Notes under the pieces: model-generated
What the model was told of the DNA's origin: nothing
Databases searched by the model: none
The model's input: the letters and a program-made list of their open reading frames with translations, nothing else
Position numbers and translations under genes: made by a program
Shown here: positions 1,016 to 29,814 of the stretch, one piece after another
Layout: every line of letters starts with the position of its first letter
How positions within the stretch are numbered: position 1 is the first letter of the stretch
DNA from: Candidatus Nanohaloarchaea archaeon
Lineage (GTDB): Archaea > Nanohalarchaeota > Nanosalinia > Nanosalinales > Nanosalinaceae
Assembly (NCBI GenBank): GCA_041640035.1
Contig: JBEQBC010000007.1
Coordinates: 1 to 34,144, forward strand
Direction of reading: 5' to 3'
Length of the DNA: 34,144 nucleotides

Positions 1016-1620
1016 GTGTGCATGAAGGACAGGAGACATTTGAAGCAGGGCAGGACCTGCAGGAAGCAGATAAAGCAGTATTGATGCTTCACGGTCGAGG
1101 AGCTACAGCAGAGAGCATACTTCAGCTTTCTGAAAGGATTCCAGAAGCTGCATATATCGCACCTCAGGCAGCCAACCGTGAATGGTACCCTCATAGCTTC
1201 CTGGAGCCACGGGAGAAGAACCAGAAGCACCTGGATTCAGCGCTGGAACTTGCTGACTCTTTGGTCAGCGCTCTCGCTGCCGCGGTAGGAAAAGAGAATG
1301 TATATCTTCTTGGTTTTTCACAGGGTGCCTGTCTGGCGTCAGAGTATGTTGCCAGTAACCCTGACCGTTACGGAGGTTTGATTGTGCTCAGCGGAGGGCT
1401 GATAGGAGAAGAGGTACAGCAGTTTGAGGGCGATCTTGAAGGTACTCCGGTTTTCATTGGCTGCAGTGATAATGATCCGCATATCCCGCTTGAAAGAGTT
1501 AAGGAGACTGTAAGGACTTTGGAAGAGATGAATGCCGATGTTGAAGAGTACATTATGGAGGGATCTCACCATGGAATCGTGGAGCATGAGGTAGATAGGA
1601 TAACTGAAATGTTGTCCTGA
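1012..1620 (+). CDS. Phospholipase/carboxylesterase (alpha/beta hydrolase, MhqD-like)
   Basis: MLHGRG, GFSQG nucleophile elbow, DPHIP and a C-terminal His. ATGA overlap with the upstream dioxygenase. Confidence 0.9.
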   Translation: MSVHEGQETFEAGQDLQEADKAVLMLHGRGATAESILQLSERIPEAAYIAPQAANREWYPHSFLEPREKNQKHLDSALELADSLVSALAAAVGKENVYLLGFSQGACLASEYVASNPDRYGGLIVLSGGLIGEEVQQFEGDLEGTPVFIGCSDNDPHIPLERVKETVRTLEEMNADVEEYIMEGSHHGIVEHEVDRITEMLS

Positions 1621-1714
1621 GGTCCGATTTAGCACTCCATTAAAACATTCACTTCCTAATTTTTCTTCAGAGACCGTATTTCCTACATTTTAACTGGTCT
1701 CTGGAGTTTTTGAA

Positions 1715-1939
1715 ATGTTCTTACTTTATGAAGACACATTATATGATGGAGAGAAACATTCTGCTATTCTGGGACGAGCAGATGACGACGAAGAGTACAT
1801 TCAGTTTCTCCAGCCATACAGCGAAAGACTTGAATCTCAGAAGGCTCATGATGATGCGCTGGAAACTATATTTGAGAGAACGGAAGACCTCAGTATACGG
1901 TATACCTCTGTAGAGTATGAATTAAAGAATGATCAATGA
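1715..1939 (+). CDS. Small acidic hypothetical protein (74 aa)
   Basis: ATG ORF with the host-like acidic composition, filling the gap and ending 4 nt from the convergent pduO stop. Confidence 0.5.
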   Translation: MFLLYEDTLYDGEKHSAILGRADDDEEYIQFLQPYSERLESQKAHDDALETIFERTEDLSIRYTSVEYELKNDQ

Positions 1940-3096: not shown

Positions 3097-4248
3097 GTGA
3101 AACTCCACGAGCACGAAGCCAAACAGATCCTGGAAGAATACGGACTTAACACACCTTCACAGGAACTGGAGGAAAACAAGGAGTATGTAGTGAAAGCACA
3201 GGTCATGGCAAATAACAGGAAAGAAATCGGAGCTATCAAGTTCGCAAAAGACCTGGAGGAAGCAGAAGCGCTCAAACAGGAGATAACTGGCGCAGAGTTC
3301 AAAGGAGTAGAAGCTGAAAAAATTTTGATCGAGGAGAGAATGAATATTGGGAAAGAATACTACGCATCCTTCATGTACGACACAGACAGCAGAAGCCCCG
3401 TCATGATGTTCTCAAAAGAAGGTGGAACAGGGGTAGAAGACAGAGAAGCAGAAAAACTTGAACTACCGGATGATTCACAGTTCAGATTCAGGCAGTTCCT
3501 CAAAGAACAGGGAGTAGAAGGAAAAACACTAGTAAAACTAGGAGCCACACTACAGAAACTATTCAAAGCATTCCTGGAAGAAGACGCAAGACTACTGGAA
3601 GTCAACCCATTAGCCAGCACCGACAAAGGATTCACAGTAGTCGACGCCATGATGGAACTGGAAGACGACGCATCATACAGAAGAGACAGAGAATTCCCAG
3701 AAAGAACAGCAACGGGGGAGGAAAAAACCGAGAGAGAACTAAGAGCCGAAAAAATAGATGAGGACGACCACAGAGGAATAGCAGGAAAATACACAGAACT
3801 CGAAGGCGATATCGGAATGATGCTAGCAGGCGGAGGAGCCAGCCTAACAAACATGGACGCATTGATAGAGTACGGCGGCGAACCAGCCAACTATACAGAG
3901 TATGGAGGAAATCCGCCGACAGAAAAAGTCTACCGGCTATCCAAAGTCATTATGAGCAAACCCGGTCTCAACGGGCTCTGGCATGTAGGGGGAACCGCAA
4001 ACAATACAGATATCTACAGAACGATGAAAGGGTTCGTACAGGCGCTGGAAGAAGTTGAACCCGATTACCCGATAGTAATACGCCGTGATGGCCCGAACGC
4101 AGACAAAGCATTTGAGCTGCTTAGGGAAAAGAAAGAAGAGCTAGGTCTGGATATGAAGCTGTTTAGAAACGATAAACCGATGACTGAAAGCGCCGAGGAT
4201 CTGATGGAGATGGTTGAAAAGTATAAAGAGGAGCAGAAAGATGAGTAA
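3097..4248 (+). CDS. Citryl-CoA synthetase / ATP-citrate lyase beta-type subunit (SucC-like ATP-grasp plus ACL-type citrate-binding domain)
   Basis: KLHEHEAK, VVKAQ, EYY and LEVNPL of the SCS-beta superfamily. The C-terminal MLAGGGAS, PANYTEYGGNP, GGTANNT and IRRDGPN match ACL rather than SucC (NGAGLAM, ANFLDVGG, VRLEGNN). Confidence 0.8.
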   Translation: MKLHEHEAKQILEEYGLNTPSQELEENKEYVVKAQVMANNRKEIGAIKFAKDLEEAEALKQEITGAEFKGVEAEKILIEERMNIGKEYYASFMYDTDSRSPVMMFSKEGGTGVEDREAEKLELPDDSQFRFRQFLKEQGVEGKTLVKLGATLQKLFKAFLEEDARLLEVNPLASTDKGFTVVDAMMELEDDASYRRDREFPERTATGEEKTERELRAEKIDEDDHRGIAGKYTELEGDIGMMLAGGGASLTNMDALIEYGGEPANYTEYGGNPPTEKVYRLSKVIMSKPGLNGLWHVGGTANNTDIYRTMKGFVQALEEVEPDYPIVIRRDGPNADKAFELLREKKEELGLDMKLFRNDKPMTESAEDLMEMVEKYKEEQKDE

Positions 4249-4906
4249 GATTCCTGTGTTTGATATTGGAGATACGCTGATTCCTTCAAGCGAGAACATC
4301 AATCAGGCGGTAAACAAGCAACTGGAGAAAGAAGGGGTAGAAGAGAAGCCCTTTTTCCCGATCAACGACTTTAACATCTACAAGGTGGAAGATGTACGGG
4401 CCTGGCTGGACAAACACGGTATAGATGCCGATGCTGAAGCAATCAGAGACGCTTACCTTGACTGGAAGGACGATTACTTCAAGCGTTCAGGTATACTCAA
4501 GGAACTGAAGAAACTGAATGAGGAATACGGACCTATCGGCTTCATAAGTGACAACAGTTTGGAAGCACGGGAATACTATACAGAGGTCTTCAAAAGACAC
4601 GGTTTGGATTACAGTGGTTTCGTGGTGTCTGAGCAGGTTGGAGCGGAGAAACCAGATCCGGCGATATTTAAGGCATTTCTGGATGAGCGAAGTGAACCAT
4701 CAGAGAAATTTGTCTACTTCGGAAACTATGTGGAAAGAGACAGAGGAGCTGAAAAAGTTGGAATGGGCTTTGTCTGGGTCAAACAGTTCCATACATTTGA
4801 CTCTGAAACCGATAAGAGCCCTCAGATACAGAATCTATCCTACAGGACGGTCAAAGAATCGCTTGAAAAAATTTCAATAGGAAACGGAGATGAAAACAAC
4901 CTATGA
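4241..4906 (+). CDS. HAD-superfamily hydrolase
   Basis: FDIGDTL (motif I), VGAEKPDPAIF (III) and YFGNYVERD..A..VGM (IV, with Asn in place of Asp). The ATG at 4241 overlaps the upstream stop. Confidence 0.85.
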   Translation: MSKIPVFDIGDTLIPSSENINQAVNKQLEKEGVEEKPFFPINDFNIYKVEDVRAWLDKHGIDADAEAIRDAYLDWKDDYFKRSGILKELKKLNEEYGPIGFISDNSLEAREYYTEVFKRHGLDYSGFVVSEQVGAEKPDPAIFKAFLDERSEPSEKFVYFGNYVERDRGAEKVGMGFVWVKQFHTFDSETDKSPQIQNLSYRTVKESLEKISIGNGDENNL

Positions 4907-5793
4907 GCATACTGGTAGATGAGAACACAAAAGTACTTGTCCAAGGGATTACTGGCAGAGAGGCAAGTGAAAAAGTACCGGAGATGATCGAGTACGGAAC
5001 CGAAGTCATTGCAGGCGTAACACCCGGCAAAGGAGGACAGAAAGTCGAAGGAGTCCCGGTCTATGACACGGTCGCGGAAGCTCTCTCACAGCACCCAGAG
5101 ATAAACACCTCACTCATCTATGTACCACCCTTCGCAGCCAAAGACGCAATACTGGAAGCACTGGAAAACGGCATCAAAACACTGAATGTAATCACAGAAA
5201 GAATACCAACACGAGACGCATGGAAGATATACCAAGAAGTCCAGAAACACGACGCCAGTTTGGTAGGGCCAACCTCAGTAGGAATAATAACACCTGAAGA
5301 AACCAAACTAGGGCCGATCGGCGGAAACGAACCAGAAAAAGTCTACAAAAGCGGCAAAGTAGGGATAATTTCCAAGTCGGGTGGAATGACAACTGAGACG
5401 GCCTGGGTGGTTAGACAGGCAGGATACGGTGTATCAACAGCAGCAGGTCTCGGAGGCGATGTAATCGCAGGAACAACCTTCGAAGACGCCCTTAAAATGT
5501 TTGAAGAAGACGATCAGACTGAAGCAGTTGTCATGTATGGAGAGCTTGGAGGAACTTACGAGGAGAAAGCAGCAGAACTACTCGAGAACAACGGTTTCAC
5601 CAAGCCCTTGATTGCTTTCATAGCTGGAAATTTCACTGAAGACATGCCTTCACGGCAGTACGGTCACGCAGGAGCAGTGATAAGAGGAAACCGCGGGAAA
5701 CCCTCACACAAGAAAAAGAAACTGGCTGAAGCTGGAGCACATGTAGTCGATGTACACCACGAGATAGGTGATAAGCTTAACCAGCTTCTCTGA
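4903..5793 (+). CDS. CoA-binding alpha subunit (SucD-like; probable citryl-CoA synthetase small subunit)
   Basis: VLVQGITG, GVTPGKGG, ISKSGGMT, YGELGG and the phospho-His motif YGHAGA. Confidence 0.88.
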   Translation: MSILVDENTKVLVQGITGREASEKVPEMIEYGTEVIAGVTPGKGGQKVEGVPVYDTVAEALSQHPEINTSLIYVPPFAAKDAILEALENGIKTLNVITERIPTRDAWKIYQEVQKHDASLVGPTSVGIITPEETKLGPIGGNEPEKVYKSGKVGIISKSGGMTTETAWVVRQAGYGVSTAAGLGGDVIAGTTFEDALKMFEEDDQTEAVVMYGELGGTYEEKAAELLENNGFTKPLIAFIAGNFTEDMPSRQYGHAGAVIRGNRGKPSHKKKKLAEAGAHVVDVHHEIGDKLNQLL

Positions 5794-6915: not shown

Positions 6916-7144
6916 AACAGAACAGTGTAAATTATCAAACAAATTATTTTCGGTCGCTATCAAGAAAAATACGCTCATTTATCTCTTATTCAAGCACCTA
7001 ATCCGCTTTCAGCTCGGAAAAGAAGATTTTATTTGGTTAAAAATATTTATGGTAAATAAATCGAAATTCTAGGTCTTCTCCACTAACCGAATAGGAACAA
7101 GGAATATCAATATCAACGGTCCAATGGTTTCCTAGGTGTACAAA

Positions 7145-7846
7145 ATGACAGATTGGGAGACAGAGATAGCATCAAGTGGTGAAGATGCAGTTATCAGAGG
7201 AAAACCGTTGGAGGAAGTGATGGAGATGGATTTCGCTGATGCTATCTGGATGCTTTTGAAGGGAGAAGAACCTTCTGAAGAGGAATCAGAAATATTCAAT
7301 ACTATACTAAGTTCATCGATAGATCACGGTGTAGGAAACCCGAGCACAGTATCTGCTCGAACAGTTCAGAGCGGAGGGAACGATATGAATACCTCTGTAG
7401 GTGCTGGAGTGCTAGCACTTGGAGATAAACATGGAGGAGCTATTGAAGAATGCATGAATCTTCTGCAGTCCGATAAAAGTGCTGAAGAGATAGTCGGTGA
7501 AAAACTTGAGGCGGGCGAAAAAATTCCTGGTCTAGGACATAAGGTCTACAGTGAGGAAGATCCTCGCGCTTCAAAAATTCTGGAGAAAGCTGAAGAACTC
7601 GGTTTGGCTGGTCCGGCTGTAGAGAAGATGCAGGAAATCCAGAGTGTCTTCGCAGAGCGAAAGGTCGACCTCGTCATGAATGTTGACGGTGCAATCGCTG
7701 CTGTTATGAGCGACTTGGAGTGGAGCCCTGAGCTTGGAAAAGGGTTCTTCATTATCGCAAGGACTCCTGGTCTCGTGGCGCATGTACATGAGGAGATGGG
7801 TGAAGAGGACTTCAGACGGGAAGAAGGAGAGTACAAAGGAAAATAA
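7145..7846 (+). CDS. ccl: Citryl-CoA lyase (citrate-synthase fold, short type)
   Basis: W.TEI start, IRG, IDHG..PST..AR, GDKHGGAIE, IPGLGHKVY..EDPR, NVDGAIAA and FIIARTPGLVAH. At ~233 aa it is too short for a citrate synthase. Confidence 0.88.
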   Translation: MTDWETEIASSGEDAVIRGKPLEEVMEMDFADAIWMLLKGEEPSEEESEIFNTILSSSIDHGVGNPSTVSARTVQSGGNDMNTSVGAGVLALGDKHGGAIEECMNLLQSDKSAEEIVGEKLEAGEKIPGLGHKVYSEEDPRASKILEKAEELGLAGPAVEKMQEIQSVFAERKVDLVMNVDGAIAAVMSDLEWSPELGKGFFIIARTPGLVAHVHEEMGEEDFRREEGEYKGK

Positions 7847-8498: not shown

Positions 8499-8903
8499 AT
8501 GAGAAAAGGAATAACACCTGTAGTAGCTATTATTCTCTTGATATCGATTACTGTTACAGCGGCTGGAACAGTATACACTTATGTAAATGCCGCTCAGCCA
8601 GATGATGTCGGAGATCAGGTGGAGTTCTCAGATCAACTCAGTGTCAACTTTGAAAGCTGCTGGTCTGATGGCTCAGGTTACAGATACAGCATAAGAAACA
8701 CCGGTGAAACAGCGTTCAACACTTCCAAAATAAATGTTTTAGTAAACAGCAGACCTCAATCTGAAAGTGAGTTTGACTTCACTCAGGTTGCTGTAAACCC
8801 TCAGGAAACATTTGAACTATTCGTCGATAATGTTGATAGAGGAGATACACTGGAGATGGTTAAAGGAGATACGACAGTCACTGAGACCTGCAGAATAAGC
8901 TGA
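8499..8903 (+). CDS. Type IV pilin / archaellin-like protein with a class III signal peptide
   Basis: MRKG|ITPVVAIILLISITVTAAG prepilin motif, followed by a beta-rich domain with IRNTG and two Cys. Confidence 0.88.
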   Translation: MRKGITPVVAIILLISITVTAAGTVYTYVNAAQPDDVGDQVEFSDQLSVNFESCWSDGSGYRYSIRNTGETAFNTSKINVLVNSRPQSESEFDFTQVAVNPQETFELFVDNVDRGDTLEMVKGDTTVTETCRIS

Positions 8904-8925
8904 AACATGTACAAAATAAGTGGGA

Positions 8926-9000
<75 letters not shown>

Positions 9001-9072
9001 ATCTGTTGACCTGTGTGAATAAGAGGAGGTGTTAATACTTTTAAACATGTTCTAATTTCTGAATTTCCTTCA

Positions 9073-10107
9073 CTAGCTCATATCTCTTATGTCCTTGAAA
9101 GCCTCCTCGTTTACATCCAGTCCTTTCATCGAGATCTCAAGTTCGTCCGCAAGCCGGTCAAGGTTCTCTTCTTCCAGTTCCATAGGATCTATTTCAAGTG
9201 CTCCACATGCGGAGGTCACACTTGATTCTGCTGTAGCTTGAGGTACATCCTTTGAAAGTCTTTCAACAACTTTCAGAGCCAAGCTATTCATCTCAGGTCT
9301 TTCTCTCTCAAACTCTGCCTTCAACGCGAGGACCATATCACCCAACACCTCTCTGAACTCTTTCAGTTCATCTGCGTTGGTATGGATTCTTGAAAGATCT
9401 ACCTCTTCCAGTTCCTCGTTCTTGATTTTCTCGGCTTCGTCCGAAAGCTCTCTGATCGGCTTGCTTAGTTTGATCGATGCTACAACTGCCAGTATAACTG
9501 AGATGAGTATCACGAGGCTTCCCATCATCATGATGTTTGTGCTGAGTTCGCCCAGGCTTTCATGCAGTTCGGATAGCTGCCTGATCTCTGAGTCAACTAC
9601 TTCTGCGTTGATGGTAGCAGAGGCGGAGGCAACTCTCTGGAAGTCTCCTCGGAAGTTATCGATTGCGGTGCTTGAGATAGTGCTTCCGGTTCTCACACTT
9701 GAGGAAGTATAAACAATCTGTTTCTCCATATCATCCTGAGCTTTATTCAGTACTTCAAGATTCTGAGCTACAGTACTGTTCTCTTCGGTATCATTTAGCT
9801 CCTGTTCGAGATTATAGGTCGCCTGAATAAATCTCTGATAATTATCCTCAAGTTCTCTGGACTCCACCAGCGCCTGATTGGTCTCTCCCTGATCCAGGTG
9901 ATGCTGGATATTCTCAAGGTTCACAAGCATCTGTTCGGAGGAATCAAAAGCCGTCTTGCTGCTTTCAATAACAGATATTGAACGGTCAATTCTCTGTTCA
10001 GCTTGCTGGTTCGTGTTCTGTACTGCTTGATGGGTTAAAACCGTGAGAGCTGGTGTGAAGGCAGCGATGAATAGAAAGCTTGCCACCATCATCGTCCGAA
10101 TTTTCAT
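9073..10107 (-). CDS. Membrane sensor: TM, extracellular helical bundle, TM, HAMP and a short C-terminal helical domain
   Basis: Two TM segments flank a ~165-aa helical region. HAMP pattern SKPIRELSDEAEKI...DELKEFREVLGDMVLAL. No kinase or MCP domain. Confidence 0.82.
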   Translation of the reverse strand: MKIRTMMVASFLFIAAFTPALTVLTHQAVQNTNQQAEQRIDRSISVIESSKTAFDSSEQMLVNLENIQHHLDQGETNQALVESRELEDNYQRFIQATYNLEQELNDTEENSTVAQNLEVLNKAQDDMEKQIVYTSSSVRTGSTISSTAIDNFRGDFQRVASASATINAEVVDSEIRQLSELHESLGELSTNIMMMGSLVILISVILAVVASIKLSKPIRELSDEAEKIKNEELEEVDLSRIHTNADELKEFREVLGDMVLALKAEFERERPEMNSLALKVVERLSKDVPQATAESSVTSACGALEIDPMELEEENLDRLADELEISMKGLDVNEEAFKDIRDMS

Positions 10108-10169
10108 ATATCAGAAATATGGCTGAGAGTCAAATAAAAAAAGAAAGGTATGAAATGTAGGCGGATTTG

Positions 10170-11171
10170 TTACTCTGCGATTTCTCCCTCAACTGTGATT
10201 CCGAATGACTGTCCTAGAGAGGTTGCTGGTGAGGAAGAGTGCTTTGCCCACACTGTGTGGATGTCGATTTCGCTGGAGACATCTTCAATGGATCCGGATG
10301 CACCTGAAGCCTGTAGAATTCCTTTGTCCAGATCGGCACCTTTGTTGACAGCTACAGTGTTTGAGAAGCCCTGGTTGGCCATATGACCTGCGAGCTCCCA
10401 TTCAGCTACAACTGTACTGTTGTACTGCTCCTGAAGATCCTTGATGGTTGAAGGTGTGAAATGATCAAGGTGTCCATGTGTAATCAGAATCATATCTACA
10501 TCCGGTACATTACTTAGATCCTCCTTCCAGTCCTGAGGTGCGGAAGGATTGGTCTCGATCCATGGATCGACCATGATGTTGCTTCCTTCAGGTCCTTGGA
10601 ACATCAATGTTCCATGACCTACCCACATAGTCTCTACACCGTTGACGGTCTCCCATTCGCCGGTTTCAAGAGTTTCTGCCTCTGAATCAGTTTCATTGTT
10701 TTCACGGAGGTCAGAAAGCTCGTTGCTGAACTCCTCTGGATTCTGATCCAGGTAAGGGAAAGTTCCGTAATGGATTGGGATAGATGTCTCAGCATCTACA
10801 TCAGCAGCCATCTCGGCTCCTGTCTCCATATCCGCCGTGTAGACATTCCCTGTAGAGAAGAAAGCTACTGAAGGATCAAGCTCGGGCTTGATGTAGTTCT
10901 CAAGAGTCCACATAGGAGCGGTATCTCCTGAGACATAGAAGCTTTCCCCGTTAGGGAAATCAATCACATATCCCATTGAAGAACCGGCGTAAAGAGGTTC
11001 TCCAAACCTGTTAGGCTGTTGCTCATCTAGATTGGAAGCGATATTCTGAACATCCTCTTCCTGTAACTGACTTTCCTGTGAGCCTGTTTGGGAAAATGAT
11101 TGAATAGCTACACCGGCAGAAATAACTAGGGCTAGGGCACCTAGTCCAACTGCTAAGTCGGTTCTTTCCAT
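10170..11171 (-). CDS. Membrane-anchored, circularly permuted metallo-beta-lactamase-fold hydrolase (UPF0173-like)
   Basis: N-terminal TM/signal. The motifs YVSGDT and IPIHYGTFP come before WVGHG, VDPW, LITHGHLDH and AKHSSS. Confidence 0.85.
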   Translation of the reverse strand: MERTDLAVGLGALALVISAGVAIQSFSQTGSQESQLQEEDVQNIASNLDEQQPNRFGEPLYAGSSMGYVIDFPNGESFYVSGDTAPMWTLENYIKPELDPSVAFFSTGNVYTADMETGAEMAADVDAETSIPIHYGTFPYLDQNPEEFSNELSDLRENNETDSEAETLETGEWETVNGVETMWVGHGTLMFQGPEGSNIMVDPWIETNPSAPQDWKEDLSNVPDVDMILITHGHLDHFTPSTIKDLQEQYNSTVVAEWELAGHMANQGFSNTVAVNKGADLDKGILQASGASGSIEDVSSEIDIHTVWAKHSSSPATSLGQSFGITVEGEIAE

Positions 11172-11275
11172 ATTTACTGTAATAGCTATTCTCGTTCTTA
11201 AGATTTAGACAGTACATTTCACATTCCCCTCTAGAACCATTACAGTTAACAGGAAATCCAATAAATTACATCATC

Positions 11276-11587
11276 ATGAGTGTAGAAAAATTCAGATCCG
11301 ACCTAGGTGAAGTCGCGATAACCGACTCCCATATCGAGAGGGAAAGAGATAATGATGAGGAATGGGAGCGTATCAAGAGAACATTCAGTGAGAAAAAACT
11401 GCTGGATGAAGCACATTTCTCCGATATCGAAAGGATCGAGTACGAGAACGGATCTGTATACCCGAACATCAGGGTCAAGACTTCTGAAAGATGGCAGCGT
11501 CTTTTCTTCCATGTCGGGGATGAGGCAGAGGAATGCTTCAAGGAACTGAAGTACCGGCTTAATGTGTACAGACAGACATTCTCCTAG
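11276..11587 (+). CDS. Hypothetical protein, possibly PH-like fold
   Basis: Acidic 103-aa ORF with a beta-strand pattern (GEVAITDSHIER...FSDIERIEY...IRVKT...LFF) ending in one helix. Confidence 0.7.
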   Translation: MSVEKFRSDLGEVAITDSHIERERDNDEEWERIKRTFSEKKLLDEAHFSDIERIEYENGSVYPNIRVKTSERWQRLFFHVGDEAEECFKELKYRLNVYRQTFS

Positions 11588-11630
11588 AGGAAAGCTTTTA
11601 ACCCGGTACAGCCCTATAAACAGTAATATT

Positions 11631-12230
11631 ATGGTAAGCGTACTAAGCAGGATAATCGACAAATTCACATCCGACGACGAAATTAAGATCGAAGACATGG
11701 AGCTTGAAGAACTCAAAGAGGAAAGAGCAGACCTCAGAGCAGACCTCGAACTGAAAAGAGACAAGCACGAAGGACTGGCAGAAGACCGCAGAGCCAAGTT
11801 CCAGAGACTACAGGAAACAGACGAACAACTACTGAAAGAAGAACTAGCAGAAGAAATAGCTTCAATTGAAGACGAGATGAGCATATACCACAACGAACAC
11901 GCACAGGTAATGGACGCGTTAAGAGTGATCGACGGCTTCATCGCGATTAAAAGGAAACAGGAACTGATGGAAGACCAGGGAATCGTCCAGGAAATCGAGG
12001 ACATGGACCAAGAAGAACTTGTAGACACCTTGAAGCAGGAAAGAGTACAGGAACTGATCCAGGACGAACAGTGGAGCGAACTGGAAGATGTATTCAGAGG
12101 CGAACTCCGACCTGACTACAGCGGAAATAAACGAGTCAACGAGATAATCGACTCCGCAGAACAAACCGCCGATCAGAGCGTTGACGAAGCACTAAACCAG
12201 CGAGACAAAAACCGGCAGACACTGGATTAA
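11631..12230 (+). CDS. All-helical coiled-coil protein (ESCRT-III/PspA-like candidate)
   Basis: N-terminal amphipathic helix MVSVLSRIIDKF, then long heptad helices, 199 aa. A TATA-like CTTTTAA lies ~30 nt upstream of ATG 11631. Confidence 0.75.
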   Translation: MVSVLSRIIDKFTSDDEIKIEDMELEELKEERADLRADLELKRDKHEGLAEDRRAKFQRLQETDEQLLKEELAEEIASIEDEMSIYHNEHAQVMDALRVIDGFIAIKRKQELMEDQGIVQEIEDMDQEELVDTLKQERVQELIQDEQWSELEDVFRGELRPDYSGNKRVNEIIDSAEQTADQSVDEALNQRDKNRQTLD

Positions 12231-12247
12231 AGCAGGTGTAGTATAGA

Positions 12248-12652
12248 ATGGCTGATGAATGTATATTCTGCCAGATTATCGAAGGCGAAATGCCTTCTCA
12301 CCAAATCTATGAGGACGATAAAGTCGTAGCATTCCTCGATGTAAACCCGGTATCCAAAGGACATACACTGGTAGTTCCGAAGGAGCATGTGAATGATATC
12401 CATGAAGCTGAAAACATGGACTACATGTGGGAGCCACTTGTCAAGGTAGCGAACACGGTCAAGGAAGAGTTCGGTGCTGAAGGAGTAAACATTGCACAGA
12501 ACAACGGTGAAAAAGCAGGACAGGAAGTATTCCACCTACACTTCCATGTAACACCGATCTACGACGGCAACGAGCTGGACATAACCTACAACCGAAGCGA
12601 ACTAGAAAACGGAGAAGAGATAGCGGAGCAGCTCCGGAAAGACCTTGAATAA
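12248..12652 (+). CDS. hit: HIT family nucleotide hydrolase
   Basis: CIFCQII, AFLDVNP..GHTLVVPK and AGQEVFHLHFHVTP histidine triad. Confidence 0.95.
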   Translation: MADECIFCQIIEGEMPSHQIYEDDKVVAFLDVNPVSKGHTLVVPKEHVNDIHEAENMDYMWEPLVKVANTVKEEFGAEGVNIAQNNGEKAGQEVFHLHFHVTPIYDGNELDITYNRSELENGEEIAEQLRKDLE

Positions 12653-12693
12653 AAAAATCATCAACATATTTTCTTCTTTTAATTTTCCTTCCT

Positions 12694-13017
12694 ATGGAGA
12701 GAAAAAAGCTGGCGGGTTATTCCGCTATAGGCTTTGTATTACTTAGTTTTCTGGCCGGTTTAGTGGTTAATCCGTCGATGCAGACCTTGATGGACTGCCC
12801 ATGTGAGTTACAGCAAATTGATAACTCTACTCAGGATGGTGAAGTACCCTGCAACAGCGTCACCACTACGGATTACATCTTCTTCACGGGTGTCCTGAAT
12901 GTTTATCAGGAGAAGGAAGGACAGGAGATAATAATGTGTGAAAACGGTGAACGAGTAGGAGAAAAAGTCAGGTATGATGAAGTATCTGATATCAAGGTCG
13001 GCACCCTCCTGAACTAA
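12694..13017 (+). CDS. Small membrane-anchored or secreted protein with 4 Cys
   Basis: Basic N-terminus plus a hydrophobic helix, followed by CPC...C...C. Confidence 0.7.
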   Translation: MERKKLAGYSAIGFVLLSFLAGLVVNPSMQTLMDCPCELQQIDNSTQDGEVPCNSVTTTDYIFFTGVLNVYQEKEGQEIIMCENGERVGEKVRYDEVSDIKVGTLLN

Positions 13018-13073
13018 CAGAATTTCCGAATATGTGGAAAATCCATAAGAACCTCCCTTCAACAAAAATCTTT

Positions 13074-13901
13074 GTGGCGCTCATAGAAAACCTGCTAATA
13101 GTATTTATCGCAGGTCTGATAACTGATTTAGCCACAGGTATAGGTGCGATACCGTTCTTTTTCATCAAAGAATTTAGTTCAAGGTACTTAATCAGTCTCT
13201 GGGGATTAGCATCCGGTATAATGATTTCAGCGTCCTTCCTGGGCCTGATTCCGGAAGGACTGAAGGCAGCTCAAGAGTACCCTCTCTACGGCTCCGAATA
13301 CTTGGCGGTAGGAATCGGACTTCTGATAGGAATAGCACTTGTAGTCGTTGCGCGTAAAGCGATCGATGAGGTCGAACTTGATCCAGGAACATTTGAGGAA
13401 GCGGACTTCAAGAAGATGATACTTATACTCGGAATACTTACAGTCCACAGCTTCCCGGAAGGCATAGCTATCGGTGTCTCATTCGCAGAAATGGGTCTAG
13501 GAAACACAGGTATACCGGTACTAGGCTTCATGATTCCGGCCATCGGTATAACGATGACTATCGCGATATCAATCCACAATATTCCGGAAGGCATCGCGAT
13601 CTCGATACCTTTCAAGGCTTCAGGTGTCTCAAACTGGAAGACAATGGGTGCCGCAATTTTCTCAAGTGTTCCACAGCCTATAGGCGCTTTAATAGCGTAC
13701 CTGTTCGTGCAGCAGGCGAGGATGTTCCTTCCTATCGGTTACGGGTTCGCAGCCGGTGCGATGATATTCCTGGTATTGACAGAGTTTGTGGAGGAAGCAT
13801 TCGAAGAAGCTGAAGAGATAAAATCAAGTGGCTGGCCTGAGTTCCTGGCAGGAAACCTCGCAGGATTAATAATCATGGTACTTCTATTTGCTTTCGTATG
13901 A
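13074..13901 (+). CDS. ZIP (ZupT/GufA) family divalent metal transporter
   Basis: LTVHSFPEGIAIG, ISIHNIPEGIAIS and GFAAGAMIFLV. The likely start is GTG at 13074. Confidence 0.93.
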   Translation: MALIENLLIVFIAGLITDLATGIGAIPFFFIKEFSSRYLISLWGLASGIMISASFLGLIPEGLKAAQEYPLYGSEYLAVGIGLLIGIALVVVARKAIDEVELDPGTFEEADFKKMILILGILTVHSFPEGIAIGVSFAEMGLGNTGIPVLGFMIPAIGITMTIAISIHNIPEGIAISIPFKASGVSNWKTMGAAIFSSVPQPIGALIAYLFVQQARMFLPIGYGFAAGAMIFLVLTEFVEEAFEEAEEIKSSGWPEFLAGNLAGLIIMVLLFAFV

Positions 13902-24404: not shown

Positions 24405-27400
24405 TTATTCCTCTACAAGTTCGCCGGTCTCACTGTCGATAACGGCCTGAGACTTACCTTCCAAGTCCTCAAGGTTCTCATCATAATCAGCAAGGAAGTT
24501 ACCTGCTGCCGTAGTGTCCTCAGCGGTCTGACCAGCAACAACCAGTGCATCATAACCATCAGTGAAGGCATCCGAAACCATCTGAAGCAGTCCCTCACCT
24601 TCAGTATACTCATCACCGGTCCAGGAATCACCCTGTTCAGCTAGGTCCTCTGTGAGATCGTTCACATCAGGACCACCGACTAGAATTAGGTCTTGGCTGG
24701 TACTTGCTTCGCTGTCAAGTACACCTACTTCAGATGTACCCTGAGGTTCAATCAGGTTGTAAGAACTGTCACCTGACTGGCTTGTGGAAACCTCTCCAAC
24801 AGCATGACTAGCATAACGCTGATTCTCTGGGTAACTGAAGCTTGCAGAACCTTCAGGCTCGAAATCAACCTGAGTACCGTAGTTACTGATTGTGGTGGTT
24901 TCGGAAGTGGTTGAACTGATGCCGTTGTTTGAATCAAGACTGTCCACTTGATTACTTCCATCGTAACCGACTTGCAGGTTATCAAAGCTACCGCTTCCTT
25001 CTTTCACATCAATAGCTGAGTTGCCTGAGTCATAACGGATTTCTGCTCCTAGCTGAGTGTCAAGAGTCTTATCCGAACTGCTTAGAGTGAAGTCTTCTTC
25101 ACCGTTTCCACCAGTACTATCGAAGCTTGTAGTGAAAGAGAATCCATAACCTGTATCATGAGTGGTTGAACTATCTCCTACGCTGACAGTTTGCTCAAAT
25201 GTTTCGTATGAAACTGTCACCTCATCAGCGGAATCATCAAACTGCACTCTTACAGGATGTCCGCTTACATCAGTGTAGAGATCCTTATCTCCAGAACCAT
25301 CTTCTAGGATGCCTCCAGAAATACTGCCGGTAATGACTGTGTCGGTTCCGGCTTGGTAGACACTATCGCCATCATCATCTACAATTGCGTCTCCGTCCAC
25401 ATAGGCGTTGTCTTCATCGTCACTGGTGTGCTTAATATTGGTTCCGAAGTTGTGTAGTGTTTTTCCGCTTAGAGCAACCTGGTTATTTCCAGTGGTTATC
25501 TGGTTAACTTCAAGGATGTCTTGGCTGCCATCGTATGCATTGCTTCCGACATACATTGTCTTTCCAGCTGTGAAAGATTGCTGGCTGTTGGAAAATCCGC
25601 CTGAGACAATCACTGTGTCAGTTCCTGAGGCATCCAAATTTGTATCGCTACTTCTTATGATGGCTTCGGATCCAACATCTAATGAGGTATCTCCGGTATT
25701 CTCGAGATAATACTCATCTAGTTGATTTAATGACACTCCTACATCAGCACCTGTTGATGTCACTCCGCTTCCAGCGGAGTATGTCTGAGTTGAGAAAATC
25801 GTCGCTCTTACATCTGTTGCGGCGATTGAACCACTTCCGTCATGATCGACATAGATTGCCTTATCGGCAGAATAACCTCCGCTTTCATCAACATCCCAGT
25901 AGGAAAGTTGCGCAGATCCTAGATTCCCGTCGAAATTGTTGGCAGGACCATAGCTACCGGAGGTAATGTCGTAATCTACAGCTTCAAATGTTGCTCCTTG
26001 CGAACTTTGATCTGTTCCAAAGTCTAGTATTACGCTATCTCCAGAGCCGTAAGAACCATCATCTCCTCCGGCAGTATCATAATCAATATTGTTGAGGGTG
26101 GCGGTGCCGTCGAAATTTACACCGCTGGAGGTTGCTACATATGGACTATTGCCTTCAGGGAAGACAATATCTCCGGATGAGATGCCTGAACTCGAGTCTG
26201 TATCGTATACAAGTTCGTCTCCATCACTGTATGAACCGGTGGTAGATCCATCTGCATCTACATAATGCCATGAGCCAGTCAGAGAACTCAAAGTAAATCC
26301 TGTATCAAAGTCGGCTGAACTGACTTGTGCAGGTCCTGTTCCTGCTAAGTTTCGGTTTATGTCACCTGTAGAGCCTCCTGATGAAGTTGATGCTACTGTG
26401 ATTGAAGTTTCTCTTGTAGCAGTGCTATCAACTGTTGATGCAGAAGTAGAGTAGATTGGTTCTAGTGCGTTTCCTGAGCCGTCTCCAGTGTATTGACTGT
26501 CAGCCTCTGTGTCTACATATTTTACAGAGGAACCGATGGCTGAAAGGACGCCACTACTTCCGCCTTTCTCTATCTCACCTGGATTCAATTGATTGTCACC
26601 ACTGTCTACAATTGCCTGGTTTCCATCGAATCCTGACGAGCTGGCGATATAATATTCAGAAGCTGAAAAATCAGATATGGTAGAACTTCCTAAGTTTGAG
26701 TTTCCTACCTCCCTAGTTGCCTTTAGAACATCGTCTTCGTCTTCGTATGTTCCAACATTAGTTCCATCATCTACGAACATGGTAGGACTAGTTGTTGATC
26801 CATCATTGAAGTTATAGAGTGTGCTCGTAGCTCCTGCTACCAAATTCCGGATGTCTAGACTCTGGTCGAATCCTTCTTTGTCTGTGTATTCGACGGTGTA
26901 GTCTTCGCTGAATGTGATTTCTTCTGTTGCTTCGTTGGTTAGTCCGGTGTTTGCAAGTGTGAAGTAGCCTTGTGGTCCTTGGAAGCTGTCTCCTGCCTCT
27001 AGGGCTTCGACTTCGTCTTCGTTCAGGTTGTCACTGTTTTTGTCGACTGCTGCTACCTGGTTGGATAGGCTGATCTTGGAGATTTTTCCACTCTGGAATG
27101 TTAGACTGGTTTTGTAGTCTGGTGTGATTTCGCTGTCTTCTCCGTCTACAAGTGTGTATTCGCTGTAGGTGGATGTTACATCTATGTAGTCTCTCTGGCT
27201 TCCGAAGAACACGCTGTCTGCTGTTACTTCGAATTTTCCGTTGTCTACCGTTGTTGTGTTGCCTGTTCCGAGCCCTGTTGATTTCAGTTCATCTCCGTCT
27301 TTACTGATTGATACATAGATTTCGCTGTTAGACTGGTCCTTGTCGACTACTTCTACTGTGTATGGTCCGTGTGTGTAGCTGTCTCCAACTTCTAATCCGT

Positions 27401-28010
27401 TCTGGTCTTGGTTGCTTCCTAGGTCTACTTCTCCTGCTCCTGTGTCGATCCCTGTTACCTCGTATTCTTCTCCGAGAAGTGTGATTGTTTCGTCTGTGTC
27501 GAAGCTTGGACTGTAGCTTACCGAATAACTTACCGTGTTGGAGCTTACTGTGGTTTCTACTGTATCGTTTACTGCGATGGTGTTGACTCCGGTGTTGGTT
27601 ACATCTATATTTTCTACGATGTAGTGGTCTGTGTCGTCATCCGCTGTTACGACTTCTCTGACTAGGTTGCTGTAGTCTGATTTATCGATTGAAAGGCTGG
27701 AAAGGCTTCCACGGATAGCCACATCTTTGCTAACCCCGTTTACACTGGTGGTTTCTCCTGAGCCTTCAACGGTCTGTGTAGTATTGCTGTACGCGTCGTT
27801 TCCAAGTGTTGTCGCGATATCTATAGCTGATACAACATCGGATGTTTTTGCGTCTTCTCCTACTACGATGCTAGAGCTTAGTGCTCCGTCATCGTCTACG
27901 AAAGGTTGTGGTAGGTCTCCAAGGTTTTGAGCTGCTGCACCGGAAGCCAGGAGCGTTACTCCAAGCAAGCCGGCAGAAAACTTCTTCGAAAGCTTGCGGA
28001 TCTTTTTCAT
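24405..28010 (-). CDS. S-layer protein (S_layer_N / S_layer_C type) with a large internal insert
   Basis: Signal peptide MKKIRKL..GAAA|Q, N-domain L..PQPFV...IVVG..A..SDVVSAIDIA and C-domain LILVGGPDVN.LT...ALVVAG....T..A. Confidence 0.88.
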   Translation of the reverse strand: MKKIRKLSKKFSAGLLGVTLLASGAAAQNLGDLPQPFVDDDGALSSSIVVGEDAKTSDVVSAIDIATTLGNDAYSNTTQTVEGSGETTSVNGVSKDVAIRGSLSSLSIDKSDYSNLVREVVTADDDTDHYIVENIDVTNTGVNTIAVNDTVETTVSSNTVSYSVSYSPSFDTDETITLLGEEYEVTGIDTGAGEVDLGSNQDQNGLEVGDSYTHGPYTVEVVDKDQSNSEIYVSISKDGDELKSTGLGTGNTTTVDNGKFEVTADSVFFGSQRDYIDVTSTYSEYTLVDGEDSEITPDYKTSLTFQSGKISKISLSNQVAAVDKNSDNLNEDEVEALEAGDSFQGPQGYFTLANTGLTNEATEEITFSEDYTVEYTDKEGFDQSLDIRNLVAGATSTLYNFNDGSTTSPTMFVDDGTNVGTYEDEDDVLKATREVGNSNLGSSTISDFSASEYYIASSSGFDGNQAIVDSGDNQLNPGEIEKGGSSGVLSAIGSSVKYVDTEADSQYTGDGSGNALEPIYSTSASTVDSTATRETSITVASTSSGGSTGDINRNLAGTGPAQVSSADFDTGFTLSSLTGSWHYVDADGSTTGSYSDGDELVYDTDSSSGISSGDIVFPEGNSPYVATSSGVNFDGTATLNNIDYDTAGGDDGSYGSGDSVILDFGTDQSSQGATFEAVDYDITSGSYGPANNFDGNLGSAQLSYWDVDESGGYSADKAIYVDHDGSGSIAATDVRATIFSTQTYSAGSGVTSTGADVGVSLNQLDEYYLENTGDTSLDVGSEAIIRSSDTNLDASGTDTVIVSGGFSNSQQSFTAGKTMYVGSNAYDGSQDILEVNQITTGNNQVALSGKTLHNFGTNIKHTSDDEDNAYVDGDAIVDDDGDSVYQAGTDTVITGSISGGILEDGSGDKDLYTDVSGHPVRVQFDDSADEVTVSYETFEQTVSVGDSSTTHDTGYGFSFTTSFDSTGGNGEEDFTLSSSDKTLDTQLGAEIRYDSGNSAIDVKEGSGSFDNLQVGYDGSNQVDSLDSNNGISSTTSETTTISNYGTQVDFEPEGSASFSYPENQRYASHAVGEVSTSQSGDSSYNLIEPQGTSEVGVLDSEASTSQDLILVGGPDVNDLTEDLAEQGDSWTGDEYTEGEGLLQMVSDAFTDGYDALVVAGQTAEDTTAAGNFLADYDENLEDLEGKSQAVIDSETGELVEE

Positions 28011-28101: not shown

Positions 28102-29814
28102 TTACCTGTTTATTCCGAAGTTACCTTTCTCGTTTTCCAGCTCTCTTCTTAGGTTCTCGATTATCTGTTCGGCCCGGTCGTAGTTTTCGTTCTCCACTGC
28201 AAGTTCTGCCTGACCGATCTTTCTTCTTGCATCGCTTCTGACGCTGTCGTCGTAGTGGTGTGCTCTCAGCAGTCTTGCGACTTCATCCATCTTGTCAGCG
28301 ATCTCTGATTCACGGCTGTCTCCGAACATTGCTGCGATGCTGTCTTTCTTCATGACGATTACTGCTGTGAAGGCTAGAACAGCCAGTACTGCTGCTACTT
28401 CTTTCACCGGTAGTCCTGATGAGCTTTCTGTAGTATCTGAACTCATTCTCTGTGCTTCTTCTGCAAGTATCTCTGCTCGACTGTAGTCGCCTTCCTCGTA
28501 TGCGTCCTGTGCTCTTTCAAGTAGTTCATTGGCTTCTGTTTCTTCCTCTACTGTCTGGTTTGCCTGTTCGATGGTTTCCTCTGCTGTTTCTCTCGGTGAC
28601 TGTTCACAGTTCTCTGTACATTCTTCTTCCTGATCTCTTGTTCCGCTTGAAGTTGCTGCGAAGTATCCTGGCGGATCTATTATGGTTTCGAAACGGTAGC
28701 TGGTATCTGTTTCACCTACAAGTACTGTGCTAAGTTCCTGCCAGCCCCCTGCGTTGAAGCTCTGGATCATCATCTGTGAAGGGTATATACTGTTCTGTTC
28801 CAGCCGTGTTTTCGACTGTTTGAAAGTTGTTGCGATACTGCTGATCTCTGATGTATCCGCACCATTTATCTGGATCCTGTAGTATGTGAGAGCTGAGTCA
28901 ACAGCTGATACCTCTGTAGGAGCTGCTCTACCCAGATTAGTTACCTCTACTGAGAAGTTAGATGCACCCTGATTTTTAGACACTGTTAGTCTTTCTACTC
29001 CTGTCGCACCTGATTCCTGTAGATCGATTTCAACCTCTGAACTGTTATCTGCATAATTTACATCTGCTGTAACCGTGTTTCCTGAATCTGTTACATCCAC
29101 AGTTAGTTCCTGATCTGATGTACTTCCTCCTGTTGTAGGTACTCCGCCTCCAGCGAAAGAGCCCCCGCCTCCGGACCCACCTCCGGTTGAACCTGAACTT
29201 ACCTGTATATTCTGCGTTGTGGTATCTGTGTTACCTACCAGATCTGTCACTGTCAGTTCAACTGTTTTCTCACCTGTACTTGAGAAAGAGACGGAAGGTG
29301 TTTCTCCCTGTGCACCGGAAACACTCCAGTCGTAATTCAGTATCTGTGTATCGTCGCTGGAACCTGAAGCATCAAGCTCCACTGATTCGCCTGTAGTAAC
29401 TGTGCCAGGTACCGAGAATGAGGCTGTCGGGTTTTCGCTGTCTGATCCGGTGAGGTCTTTTTCTGTGCTGTTTCCGCTGTAGTATGTTGATTCTCCTACC
29501 TCCTCGTTACCGGTTCGGAAGGTGATTGTGTCGCCGGATCCGCCGCCACATACTACGAATCGGTCGTCCTGGTCTGCGTATGTTCCCTGTGATACTGAGG
29601 TCTGTACGCTTACCTTTTCTCCGTCTATGTATGCGGATACTTCTGTTCCCTGTGGTGCTGGTTCTCCGTTTATCGTGAGGTCTCCTCTGAAGTCATGTGG
29701 TATGGAGGGTGCTCCTGATGAGTCTGAGGATGAAAGGCAGTCGCTGGCAGCCCCTAGAGAGGGTAAAGCCAGTAGTACTAGTGCCAGCGCTGCTATTTTC
29801 TTCATCTTTATCAT
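28102..29814 (-). CDS. Cell-surface protein with PKD and PGF-pre-PGF-like domains, a C-terminal TM and a cytoplasmic tail
   Basis: Signal peptide, PHDFRG.LTINGEPAP.GT domain, PKD (PTASF...LDASGSSDD..I..YDW...LTVTD), Gly linker, PGF-pre-PGF-like region (GWQELST...YRFE...PPGYFA) and a TM. Confidence 0.82.
   Translation of the reverse strand: MIKMKKIAALALVLLALPSLGAASDCLSSSDSSGAPSIPHDFRGDLTINGEPAPQGTEVSAYIDGEKVSVQTSVSQGTYADQDDRFVVCGGGSGDTITFRTGNEEVGESTYYSGNSTEKDLTGSDSENPTASFSVPGTVTTGESVELDASGSSDDTQILNYDWSVSGAQGETPSVSFSSTGEKTVELTVTDLVGNTDTTTQNIQVSSGSTGGGSGGGGSFAGGGVPTTGGSTSDQELTVDVTDSGNTVTADVNYADNSSEVEIDLQESGATGVERLTVSKNQGASNFSVEVTNLGRAAPTEVSAVDSALTYYRIQINGADTSEISSIATTFKQSKTRLEQNSIYPSQMMIQSFNAGGWQELSTVLVGETDTSYRFETIIDPPGYFAATSSGTRDQEEECTENCEQSPRETAEETIEQANQTVEEETEANELLERAQDAYEEGDYSRAEILAEEAQRMSSDTTESSSGLPVKEVAAVLAVLAFTAVIVMKKDSIAAMFGDSRESEIADKMDEVARLLRAHHYDDSVRSDARRKIGQAELAVENENYDRAEQIIENLRRELENEKGNFGINR

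Follow-up and report, generated by a model that had tools for sequence, protein, structure and literature searches.

Circular Permutation of the MBL-Fold Protein P0001

The stretch of DNA analysed here (the window) is a 34,144-nucleotide contig, C7, of the Candidatus Nanohaloarchaea archaeon genome G000. At 10170-11171 on the minus strand it encodes a protein of 333 amino acids, P0001, in which the two halves of a UPF0173-like metallo-β-lactamase (MBL) fold stand in swapped order. The open reading frame (ORF) was uninterrupted and ended with a TAA stop at 10170-10172. P0001 was judged, with a probability of about 0.8, to be a genuine circular permutant, maintained by selection, of a UPF0173-type MBL-fold hydrolase with a binuclear metal site, and that the permutation itself is real and conserved is nearly certain. 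A natural circular permutation of such a hydrolase had been proposed before any database search was made (the original prediction). It was borne out by swapped two-piece matches to the UPF0173 model NF001911, to PDB chains, and to a hidden Markov model (HMM) of canonical-order relatives.

The swapped order of the two halves was far beyond chance. P0001 passed the Pfam thresholds of Lactamase_B_2 (PF12706, 55.2 bits, cut-off 27) and Lactamase_B_3 (PF13483, 53.9 bits, cut-off 24), each in two stretches. On the DNA, the UPF0173 equivalog model NF001911 matched with profile positions 3-97 at 10323-10631(-) and with positions 116-226 at 10668-11009(-), the former lying downstream of the latter. The canonical relative P0032 matched positions 3-227 of this 228-position model in one stretch, and P0001 failed to give a collinear full match, yielding two swapped stretches instead. 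A phmmer search against all PDB chains gave the same pattern for TM_1162 (3x2z): query residues 178-275 were aligned with chain residues 1-89 (i-E 1.8e-9), and query residues 59-152 with chain residues 119-209 (i-E 3.3e-5). Two other structures, the S. aureus protein 7e3v and Igni18 (6hrg), likewise matched in two swapped pieces. The two local matches in swapped order that the original prediction expected of an HMM search were obtained exactly, and no collinear full-length alignment to an ordinary MBL family occurred.

The canonical HMM had 253 nodes and was built from 132 canonical-order relatives. Residues 52-172 of P0001, the old C-terminal half (10656-11018; all parts of the gene lie on the minus strand), corresponded to nodes 129-237 (82.7 bits, 7e-27). 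Residues 176-314, the old N-terminal half including WxGH (10230-10646), corresponded to nodes 8-124 (93.6 bits, 3e-30). The entire canonical core was covered, with the cut between nodes 124 and 129 directly past the HSS motif. The old termini were rejoined from node 237 to node 8 by the three residues W-E-T (173-175, 10647-10655), which fall in the gap between the two alignments. P0032 gave a single collinear match to nodes 7-241. When the permuted protein P0016 was compared with P0032, the identity was 41% in the N-half (166-303 against 82-209) and 51% in the C-half (54-148 against 222-316). The strings originally read from P0001 were all present in the claimed order: YAGSSMGYVIDF at 61-72, YVSGDT at 79-84, IPIHYGTFP at 131-139, LETGE at 168-172, ETMWVGHG at 180-187, VDPW at 201-204, THGHLDH at 231-237, AKHSSS at 309-314, and SLGQSFGITVEG at 319-330.

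Distribution and Origin of the Permuted Family

The same order was sought in other proteins. A word-indexed protein search returned 21 proteins, 20 of which shared the permuted order (32-93% identity, 77-100% coverage); the twenty-first was a canonical protein of 232 amino acids that matched 27% of the query. When 1.84 billion representatives were searched with a profile, 7682 matches at E ≤ 0.001 were obtained. Among the 150 of these that were listed, 15 cluster representatives were collinear in one stretch, and the others matched in two stretches, like canonical proteins. Separate half-HMMs were then applied to 171 proteins; the C-half came first in 36, the N-half came first in 134, and one contained a single half only. 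The 36 C-half-first proteins consisted of 33 full-length permuted proteins, two fragments (P0035 and P0081), and one N-C-N-C tandem fusion (P0058). The 33 full-length proteins were aligned and showed 26-93% identity. They came from many independent assemblies, which answered the call in the original prediction to look for this order in other genomes. As to read support across the junction, which the prediction placed near 10620-10680, Logan contigs covered 10000-11400 without differences and without alternative joints, and a 314-base piece (10519-10832) bridged the joint. All of this came from one run holding the locus, and the tiling is not independent support because that run may be the source sample.

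For the phylogenetic trees, the halves were aligned separately and the alignments were then concatenated. Six rows were left out: P0058 as a tandem fusion, P0035 and P0081 as fragments on inspection, P0169 with one half only, and P0051 and P0158 as likely fragments on length alone (192 and 168 amino acids). In the FastTree analysis of 33 permuted and 132 canonical rows, all permuted proteins fell on one side of one branch with a local support of 94. IQ-TREE, with 24 of the 33 permuted and the 46 nearest canonical rows, again gave a single permuted branch (SH-aLRT 91). Both trees are consistent with a single origin. In the tree with an arbitrary distant root, the nearest canonical rows to the permuted clade were P0034, P0045, P0032, P0033, and P0165. 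P0032 and P0033 carry RRxFLK Tat-type leaders, P0034 has a transmembrane (TM) segment and a spacer of about 60 residues, and P0165 has a signal-like hydrophobic segment.

The taxa named by the sources were Nanohaloarchaea SG9 (P0004), Aenigmarchaeota (P0024), and Patescibacteria (P0028, and P0173 in the P0029 cluster). Scanning metagenomes with P0029, one of the Patescibacteria proteins, gave 21 loci with the permuted gene, and a viral contig scan with P0018 found no relative. Longer, fused forms were sought with the permuted-family alignment A2 and none was found, which is weak evidence. A contig scan with A2 gave 66 loci, none of them permuted; the pattern was the shared THGHxDH motif, and canonical relatives dominated. 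Many other genomes of the phylum contained canonical UPF0173-like ORFs only. No canonical UPF0173 copy was found when the DNA of the window's own genome (89% complete) was scanned with the NF001911 profile.

The resident canonical UPF0173 genes of Nanohaloarchaeota were considered as the source of the permuted gene and rejected. On the permuted-family HMM their N-halves scored 15-44 bits, against 91-105 bits for P0032-P0034, and because of this distance they are not the direct source. These canonical genes often occur as same-strand tandem pairs about 45-55 bp apart, such as L076 1039-1719 and 1762-2403, L081 1030-1698 and 1747-2379, and L083 1495-2175 and 2229-2864, all on the minus strand. 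Such pairs are the starting state for permutation by duplication and fusion, though they are distant relatives of the permuted family. P0058 (453 amino acids), in which a distant MBL hydrolase with a signal peptide is fused in tandem as N-C-N-C, is a natural example of the fused intermediate. The permuted gene would have arisen once, in a lineage whose canonical enzymes were already exported, when a gene was duplicated in tandem, fused in frame, and trimmed; duplication followed by trimming is a plausible route. Afterwards, the gene would have spread among small-genome archaea (Nanohaloarchaeota and Aenigmarchaeota) and Patescibacteria.

Metal Site and Break Site

The metal ligands were all retained in P0001, as had been claimed. 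The seven ligands are H232, H234, D236, H237, H311, D83, and H134; together with D202, the five MBL motifs are complete. The old N-terminal half holds the motif 1 Asp D202 (10566-10568), motif 2 H232-x-H-x-D-H237 (10461-10478), and motif 3 H311 (10239-10241). The old C-terminal half holds motif 4 GDT with D83 (10920-10928) and motif 5 HY with H134 (10770-10772). All seven ligands were found in 29 of the 33 permuted members, and D83, D202, H232, H234, and D236 were invariant in all 33. Judged by this ligand retention, P0001 is probably catalytically active.

The fold of Igni18 consists of two sheets, (β14, β1-β6) and (β7-β13), and the motif-3 His118 lies inside PVR5 (residues 117-126). PVR5 is one of three variable loops round the catalytic pocket and is also part of the trimer interface (PMC7846560). 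In our alignment, residue 70 of P0001 corresponded to Igni18 residue 130 and H311 to the motif-3 His, so the cut lies right past this His. Since these two residues align in this way, the new termini are placed in PVR5 at the pocket. This mapping, rather than a model, supports the predicted position of the termini beside the active site. With the chain opened in this variable loop bordering the pocket, the membrane tether would thus enter the fold at the active-site rim. The three-residue joint is plausible because β14 and β1 adjoin in one sheet of Igni18 (PMC7846560).

From the N-terminus, the chain would begin with the anchor and a linker of about 28 residues, followed by the second-sheet part (approximately β8-β13 of Igni18), which contributes the bridging Asp and the final His. 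From the old last strand, the chain would then pass through the three-residue joint into the old first strand, continuing with the first sheet, which carries the motif-1 Asp and HxHxDH. The chain would finally return to the second sheet for the motif-3 His strand and end there; in the nanohaloarchaeal proteins, a 19-residue tail would be added past this strand. The ESM Atlas model of the homologue P0004 had a pTM of 0.77, and its structural neighbours were canonical UPF0173 clusters (TM by row 0.63 and 0.59).

C-Terminal Tail and Linker

The C-terminal tail of P0001, residues 315-333 (P-ATSLGQSFGITVEGEIAE, 10173-10229), is 19 residues long and was conserved only in 15 nanohaloarchaeal-type proteins. 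Other permuted clades ended 2-17 residues past HSS. In the original prediction, the strand at the breakpoint was thought to be present at both ends of the protein. In some members of the nanohaloarchaeal clade, the canonical HMM alignment ran from HSS through a deletion to the next strand. The hypothesised strand position was the best ungapped match to the canonical HMM in 7 of the 15 tails, with scores of only 6.5-8.6 bits, and 9-31% of shuffled tails scored equally high somewhere in the HMM. When only the position chosen a priori was considered, 31-70 of 2000 shuffles reached the tail score in the window's sub-clade, and 110-735 of 2000 did so for the other tails tested (P0009, P0010, and the sister sub-clade). 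Because the tails are kin, the shuffles amount in effect to one weak test. The N-terminal linker was tried as a relic of the strand before the break and was rejected, its collinear scores being at most 1.7 bits, mostly negative, and negative for P0001. The tail match being marginal, the duplicated strand was not established. The tail is possibly a relic of the loop and strand past the break, and since it is conserved, it probably has a role of its own now.

Membrane Anchor and Location

P0001 starts with a hydrophobic segment, L6-I23 (11103-11156), a putative signal anchor or signal peptide with a Kyte-Doolittle 19-mer mean of 2.12 from residue 5. It is followed by an acidic, Q/E-rich linker (residues 24-51, 11019-11102) that leads to the catalytic domain and had no alignment to the canonical HMM. 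An N-terminal hydrophobic 19-mer, with a mean hydropathy of at least 1.96 and a start within the first 28 residues, occurred in all 33 permuted members, compared with 14 of the 132 canonical relatives. In the permuted members, the N-flank was generally less negative than the C-flank, which mostly fits an N-in/C-out orientation. Furthermore, Tat-type leaders were found in two of the five nearest canonical relatives (P0032 and P0033). The original prediction of an exported protein agrees with these sequence features, and the MBL domain is very probably extracytoplasmic.

Downstream Sensor/Transducer-Like Gene

While the original prediction held for the permutation and not for the redundant strand, a partner gene was not among its observations. 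This gene (9073-10107, minus strand, 344 amino acids) starts 62 bp past the MBL stop on the same strand. Its product has two TM segments flanking an extracytoplasmic sensor domain, as read from the sequence. TM1 spans residues ~6-24 (10036-10092) and is followed by a helical domain of about 167 residues between the hydrophobic runs (~25-191, 9535-10035) and by TM2 (~192-212, 9472-9534). A HAMP-like segment (~213-265, P-I-x-x-L...D-E-L...M-V-L-A-L, 9313-9471) and a conserved C-terminal domain of about 80 residues (266-344, 9076-9312) complete the protein. The partner profile matched the Tar periplasmic four-helix bundle 2asr (E 0.0043). Pfam HAMP was found in 6 of 17 partner homologues (best E 7.9e-4) and 4HB_MCP_1 in one of the 17. 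In NCBIfam, the partner resembled the N-terminal part of a sensor histidine kinase (E 1.5e-4). A scan of the own genome with PF00672 gave no HAMP at E ≤ 0.01. In the 62-bp gap (10108-10169, minus strand), a T-rich run, CTTTCTTTTTTTATTT, lies about 30 nt before the sensor ATG; the run may act as an archaeal terminator or as a TATA-like element, or as both.

Partner homologues were located directly downstream of the permuted MBL gene in G040 (59% identity) and G010 (29%), that is, in three of three nanohaloarchaeal loci. Apart from the MBL and sensor genes, the 4-kb G010 locus had no match to the window. Six further sensor homologues, each on a contig equal in length to that of an MBL homologue, suggest the same pairing without proving it. 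In the metagenomes, all 13 loci with at least 600 bases downstream carried a mutually homologous gene on the same strand, 26-116 bases past the MBL gene; in the remaining 8 of the 21, the sequence stops no more than 9 bases from the match. HAMP was confirmed in all five metagenome partners scanned (39.9-57.4 bits). Two metagenome partners were full histidine kinases (L087 and L102), and a response regulator followed in L087. The best NCBIfam resemblance of the Patescibacteria-like partners was to WalK, at 63-252 bits against a cut-off of 725. The loci of the contig scan with A2 served as a control set for neighbours: canonical relatives had 18 downstream genes there, and HAMP was found in none of them. 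The nanohaloarchaeal and the bacterial sensors were examined for homology, which was rejected, since the hhalign probability was 5-7% and only TM2 and HAMP were aligned; the architecture alone is common.

Of the 70 genomes of the phylum, 7 contained the sensor family. At three loci, one each in G009 and G011 and the second of G010, the gene ahead of a sensor paralogue (34-35% identity) encodes an SBP_bac_5 solute-binding protein with an N-terminal anchor. The pairs are located at 1343-2908 and 2915-3967 in L110, 1418-2983 and 2990-4042 in L111, and 1270-2658 and 202-1008 in L109. The gap between the two genes was 6 bp in L110 and L111, and there were no ABC permease genes in the fetched stretches of L109-L111.

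Two further loci were compared with the window. The flank of L108 (G044:C5:11000-15300), which includes ZIP, HIT, and two small genes, was 86% identical in DNA to that of the window (8886-13897) up to window position 11282. The window's sensor was closer to that of G040, from another genus (59%), than to that of G044, from the same genus (49%). The G044 locus looks like a cassette replacement, as far as one comparison goes. A divergence of the sensor ectodomain specific to G044 was looked for and rejected, the region-wise identities being even. In L112 (G038:C9:27500-31000, ~1406-1798, minus strand), approximately the first 60 MBL residues, comprising anchor and linker, abut a match to sensor residues 265-344; these fragments look like a deletion remnant of the MBL/sensor pair. 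The sole histidine-kinase-like ORF of the own genome encodes a soluble protein of 318 amino acids (G000:C9, L107 859-1815, plus strand), with HisKA at 24.3 bits, below the cut-off, and HATPase_c at 42.7 bits.

Directly upstream of the permuted MBL gene, a 5'-3' exonuclease gene was present in six of eight annotated Patescibacteria-like loci (L085, L088, L091, L092, L096, and L103), with two further genes in between in L103. TsaE and a PilB-like T2SSE ATPase were found further upstream in five of these six loci, and a ComEA-like HHH_3+LTD gene in two. Such a neighbourhood may result from the gene order of the lineage or point to a connection with DNA uptake.

Proposed Function and Alternative Explanations

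P0001 would be a metal-dependent hydrolase exposed on the outside of the membrane, where it would act with the downstream two-TM sensor/transducer as a ligand-recognising or ligand-processing partner. Judging from gene position, the anchored upstream protein, MBL or binding protein, would supply the transducer input, and the MBL would hold the same position as the membrane-anchored solute-binding protein beside the paralogous sensors. A functional coupling of the MBL to the sensor is slightly favoured on this ground. It is a more speculative and rather unlikely proposal that the permutation was adaptive. According to it, the tether would have moved from the back of the fold to the pocket rim, with the pocket facing the membrane and the transducer ectodomain. 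The result would be an enzyme-coupled sensing module, its turnover or occupancy read by the HAMP protein. This module would have been exchanged between DPANN archaea and Patescibacteria and be interchangeable with a solute-binding co-sensor.

Several observations weigh against a selectively maintained UPF0173-type enzyme that works with the sensor. P0001 scored 119.7 bits on NF001911, below the 144-bit equivalog cut-off, which the permuted family straddles (P0016 188.6 bits, P0029 138.3 bits). As both the equivalog score and collinearity failed, P0001 was filed as a permuted offshoot and not as a member of the UPF0173 equivalog. A full-length permuted gene was found in only 3 of the 70 genomes of the phylum, namely G000, G040 (75%), and G010 (51%). 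H311 was replaced by Gln in 3 of the 33 members, and P0026, with H237Q and H134R, had lost two ligands; catalysis may therefore not be universal in the family. As to the partner, the nanohaloarchaeal HAMP (PF00672) stayed below the Pfam 25-bit cut-off, and the window's own protein had no match at E ≤ 1. There was no detectable homology between the archaeal and bacterial sensor ectodomains, nor an ectodomain-specific signal in the region-wise sensor identities. In G044, of the same genus, the MBL gene is lacking, and the conserved flank runs straight up to the sensor gene (49% protein identity). Moreover, no response regulator was found in the own genome at 89% completeness, and this absence, together with a kinase-like ORF that is only soluble, counts against a classical relay in the window's own archaeon.

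The permuted order could in principle be an artefact of assembly or annotation, a chimeric ORF made from two adjacent canonical genes. Tandem canonical UPF0173 genes do exist in other Nanohaloarchaeota (L076, L081, and L083), and read-through matches across such pairs imitate the permuted order. Against this, the frame is open without a stop, the contigs covering the locus show no differences, the N-half scores mark the resident tandem genes as distant relatives only, and the order recurs in 33 divergent full-length proteins from independent assemblies. By this conservation, an artefact is refuted for practical purposes. It is also very unlikely that the halves pair between chains in a domain-swapped dimer or oligomer, so that the sequence but not the monomeric fold would be permuted. 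The joint of only about three residues and the Igni18 trimer with PVR5 at its interface would suit such pairing. A short hairpin joint suffices, however, for the strands β14 and β1, which adjoin in Igni18 (PMC7846560), and the P0004 model is compact with UPF0173 clusters as structural neighbours.

The function could also be that of a stand-alone surface hydrolase for scavenging (phosphodiesterase/nuclease, lipase/phospholipase, or lactonase), by which host-dependent small cells would process external nutrients, and the sensor would be merely a regulatory or chance neighbour. Igni18 itself is promiscuous, with β-lactamase, lactonase, lipase, phosphodiesterase, phosphotriesterase, and phospholipase activities given in the abstract of its report (PMC7846560). 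The upstream exonuclease, TsaE, PilB-like, and ComEA-like genes of the Patescibacteria-like loci point in the same direction, as do the sensor without MBL in G044 and the response regulator not found in the own genome. On the other hand, the upstream genes vary (L087 and L102) and the downstream sensor is constant; the pairing persists in archaea and bacteria alike, and 18 canonical relatives lack it. Scavenging alone is accordingly regarded as somewhat unlikely. As a non-catalytic co-receptor (pseudo-enzyme), P0001 would capture a ligand in its pocket and hand it on to the transducer without turnover. The anchored SBP_bac_5 proteins in the same upstream position beside paralogous sensors and the ligand losses in H311Q members and P0026 are in line with this. 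So is the cut in PVR5, which removes a loop that shapes pocket and trimer interface in Igni18 (PMC7846560). Yet 29 of the 33 members keep seven ligands, and the invariance of HxHxD, D83, and D202 is typical of selection for metal binding and catalysis, which makes a pseudo-enzyme clearly unlikely compared with a metal-dependent hydrolase.

Comparison with Known Systems

Compared with UPF0173 proteins (NF001911/PRK00685; 3X2Z, 6HRG, 7E3V), P0001 has both halves homologous, the five MBL motifs, an equal domain size, and the WxGH, DPW, THGHxDH, HSS, GDT, and HYxTFP strings. It differs in that its halves are swapped, the chain is opened past the motif-3 His, the former termini are joined, the protein has a membrane anchor, and the score lies below the family cut-off. 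In addition, the solved members are soluble, and Igni18 is a trimer via the loop that is cut in P0001 (PMC7846560). The exported canonical relatives (P0032 and P0033, Tat-type; P0034, TM) come nearest in sequence and, like P0001, are predicted to lie outside the cytoplasm. In contrast to P0001, they have the canonical order, and their tether or leader is at the old N-terminus and not in the active-site loop.

Natural circular permutants are known elsewhere, such as concanavalin A versus favin, the swaposins, and DNA methyltransferases, and are presumed to arise by duplication, fusion, and trimming. P0001 shares the kind of rearrangement and the presumed route, whereas the fold differs. Full-text searches of the literature, with papers in subscription journals mostly outside their scope, found no report of a permuted MBL fold.

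For the gene pair, extracytoplasmic binding proteins that supply ligand recognition to a two-TM transducer are known from LuxP-LuxQ, TorT-TorS, and MBP-Tar. The likeness is that the gene of an extracytoplasmic protein adjoins that of a two-TM transducer, as the SBP_bac_5 pairs in G009, G010, and G011 also do. The difference is that the putative partner of the transducer has an enzyme fold whose metal ligands are intact.

At the system level, the WalRK locus of Bacilli comes closest. There, a two-TM kinase is syntenic with the anchored extracellular WalH and WalI and with the cytosolic β-lactamase-fold protein WalJ (PMC4801191). Both systems keep a two-TM sensor with an extracellular loop beside anchored accessory proteins and an MBL-fold protein. 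WalJ is cytosolic, of canonical order, and from another MBL subfamily, and WalH and WalI are not MBL proteins (PMC4801191). A P0001-type protein unites a WalH/I-like topology with the MBL fold. The WalK scores of the partners are far below the cut-off, and membership is not claimed.

Genomic Setting

The own genome G000 comprises 0.98 Mb in 24 contigs, with acidic proteins and a GC content of about 46%. The MBL gene is surrounded by ordinary chromosomal genes, which include a succinyl-CoA/ATP-citrate-lyase-like set, HIT, ZIP, NUDIX, the ribosomal proteins S9 and L13, and an S-layer protein. The ATP-citrate-lyase-like set, in a nanohaloarchaeal genome of about 1 Mb, is located at 3097-4248(+), 4903-5793(+), and 7136-7846(+); the domains of its ORFs are ATP-grasp_2 with Citrate_bind, CoA_binding with Ligase_CoA, and the C-terminal part of citrate synthase. 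Furthermore, three consecutive very large surface-type proteins are encoded at 24405-28010(-), 28102-29814(-), and 29811-33734(-). They have 1201 amino acids with S_layer_C, 570 amino acids with PKD, and more than 1300 amino acids with a right-handed β-helix.

Implications

Circular permutation is known in other folds, and the full-text searches turned up no description of a permuted MBL fold. The MBL superfamily is among the most studied enzyme folds, and a variant with its termini by the metal site marks where the sandwich tolerates opening; this site is useful for engineering split or switchable MBL enzymes. Annotation pipelines label the permuted proteins 'MBL fold metallo-hydrolase' or 'UlaG'. 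As the equivalog model misses P0001, the permuted architecture is invisible in databases. The tandem canonical genes and the N-C-N-C fusion illustrate intermediate stages of permutation by duplication.

As far as the sources name taxa, the family occurs in Nanohaloarchaea, Aenigmarchaeota, and Patescibacteria only, with a sensor gene in every informative locus. This sensor-linked family is a testable handle on how host-dependent cells sense their surroundings. If the adaptive proposal is true, ultra-small, host-dependent cells would have in the enzyme-coupled module a signal-transduction input device of a kind not described before.

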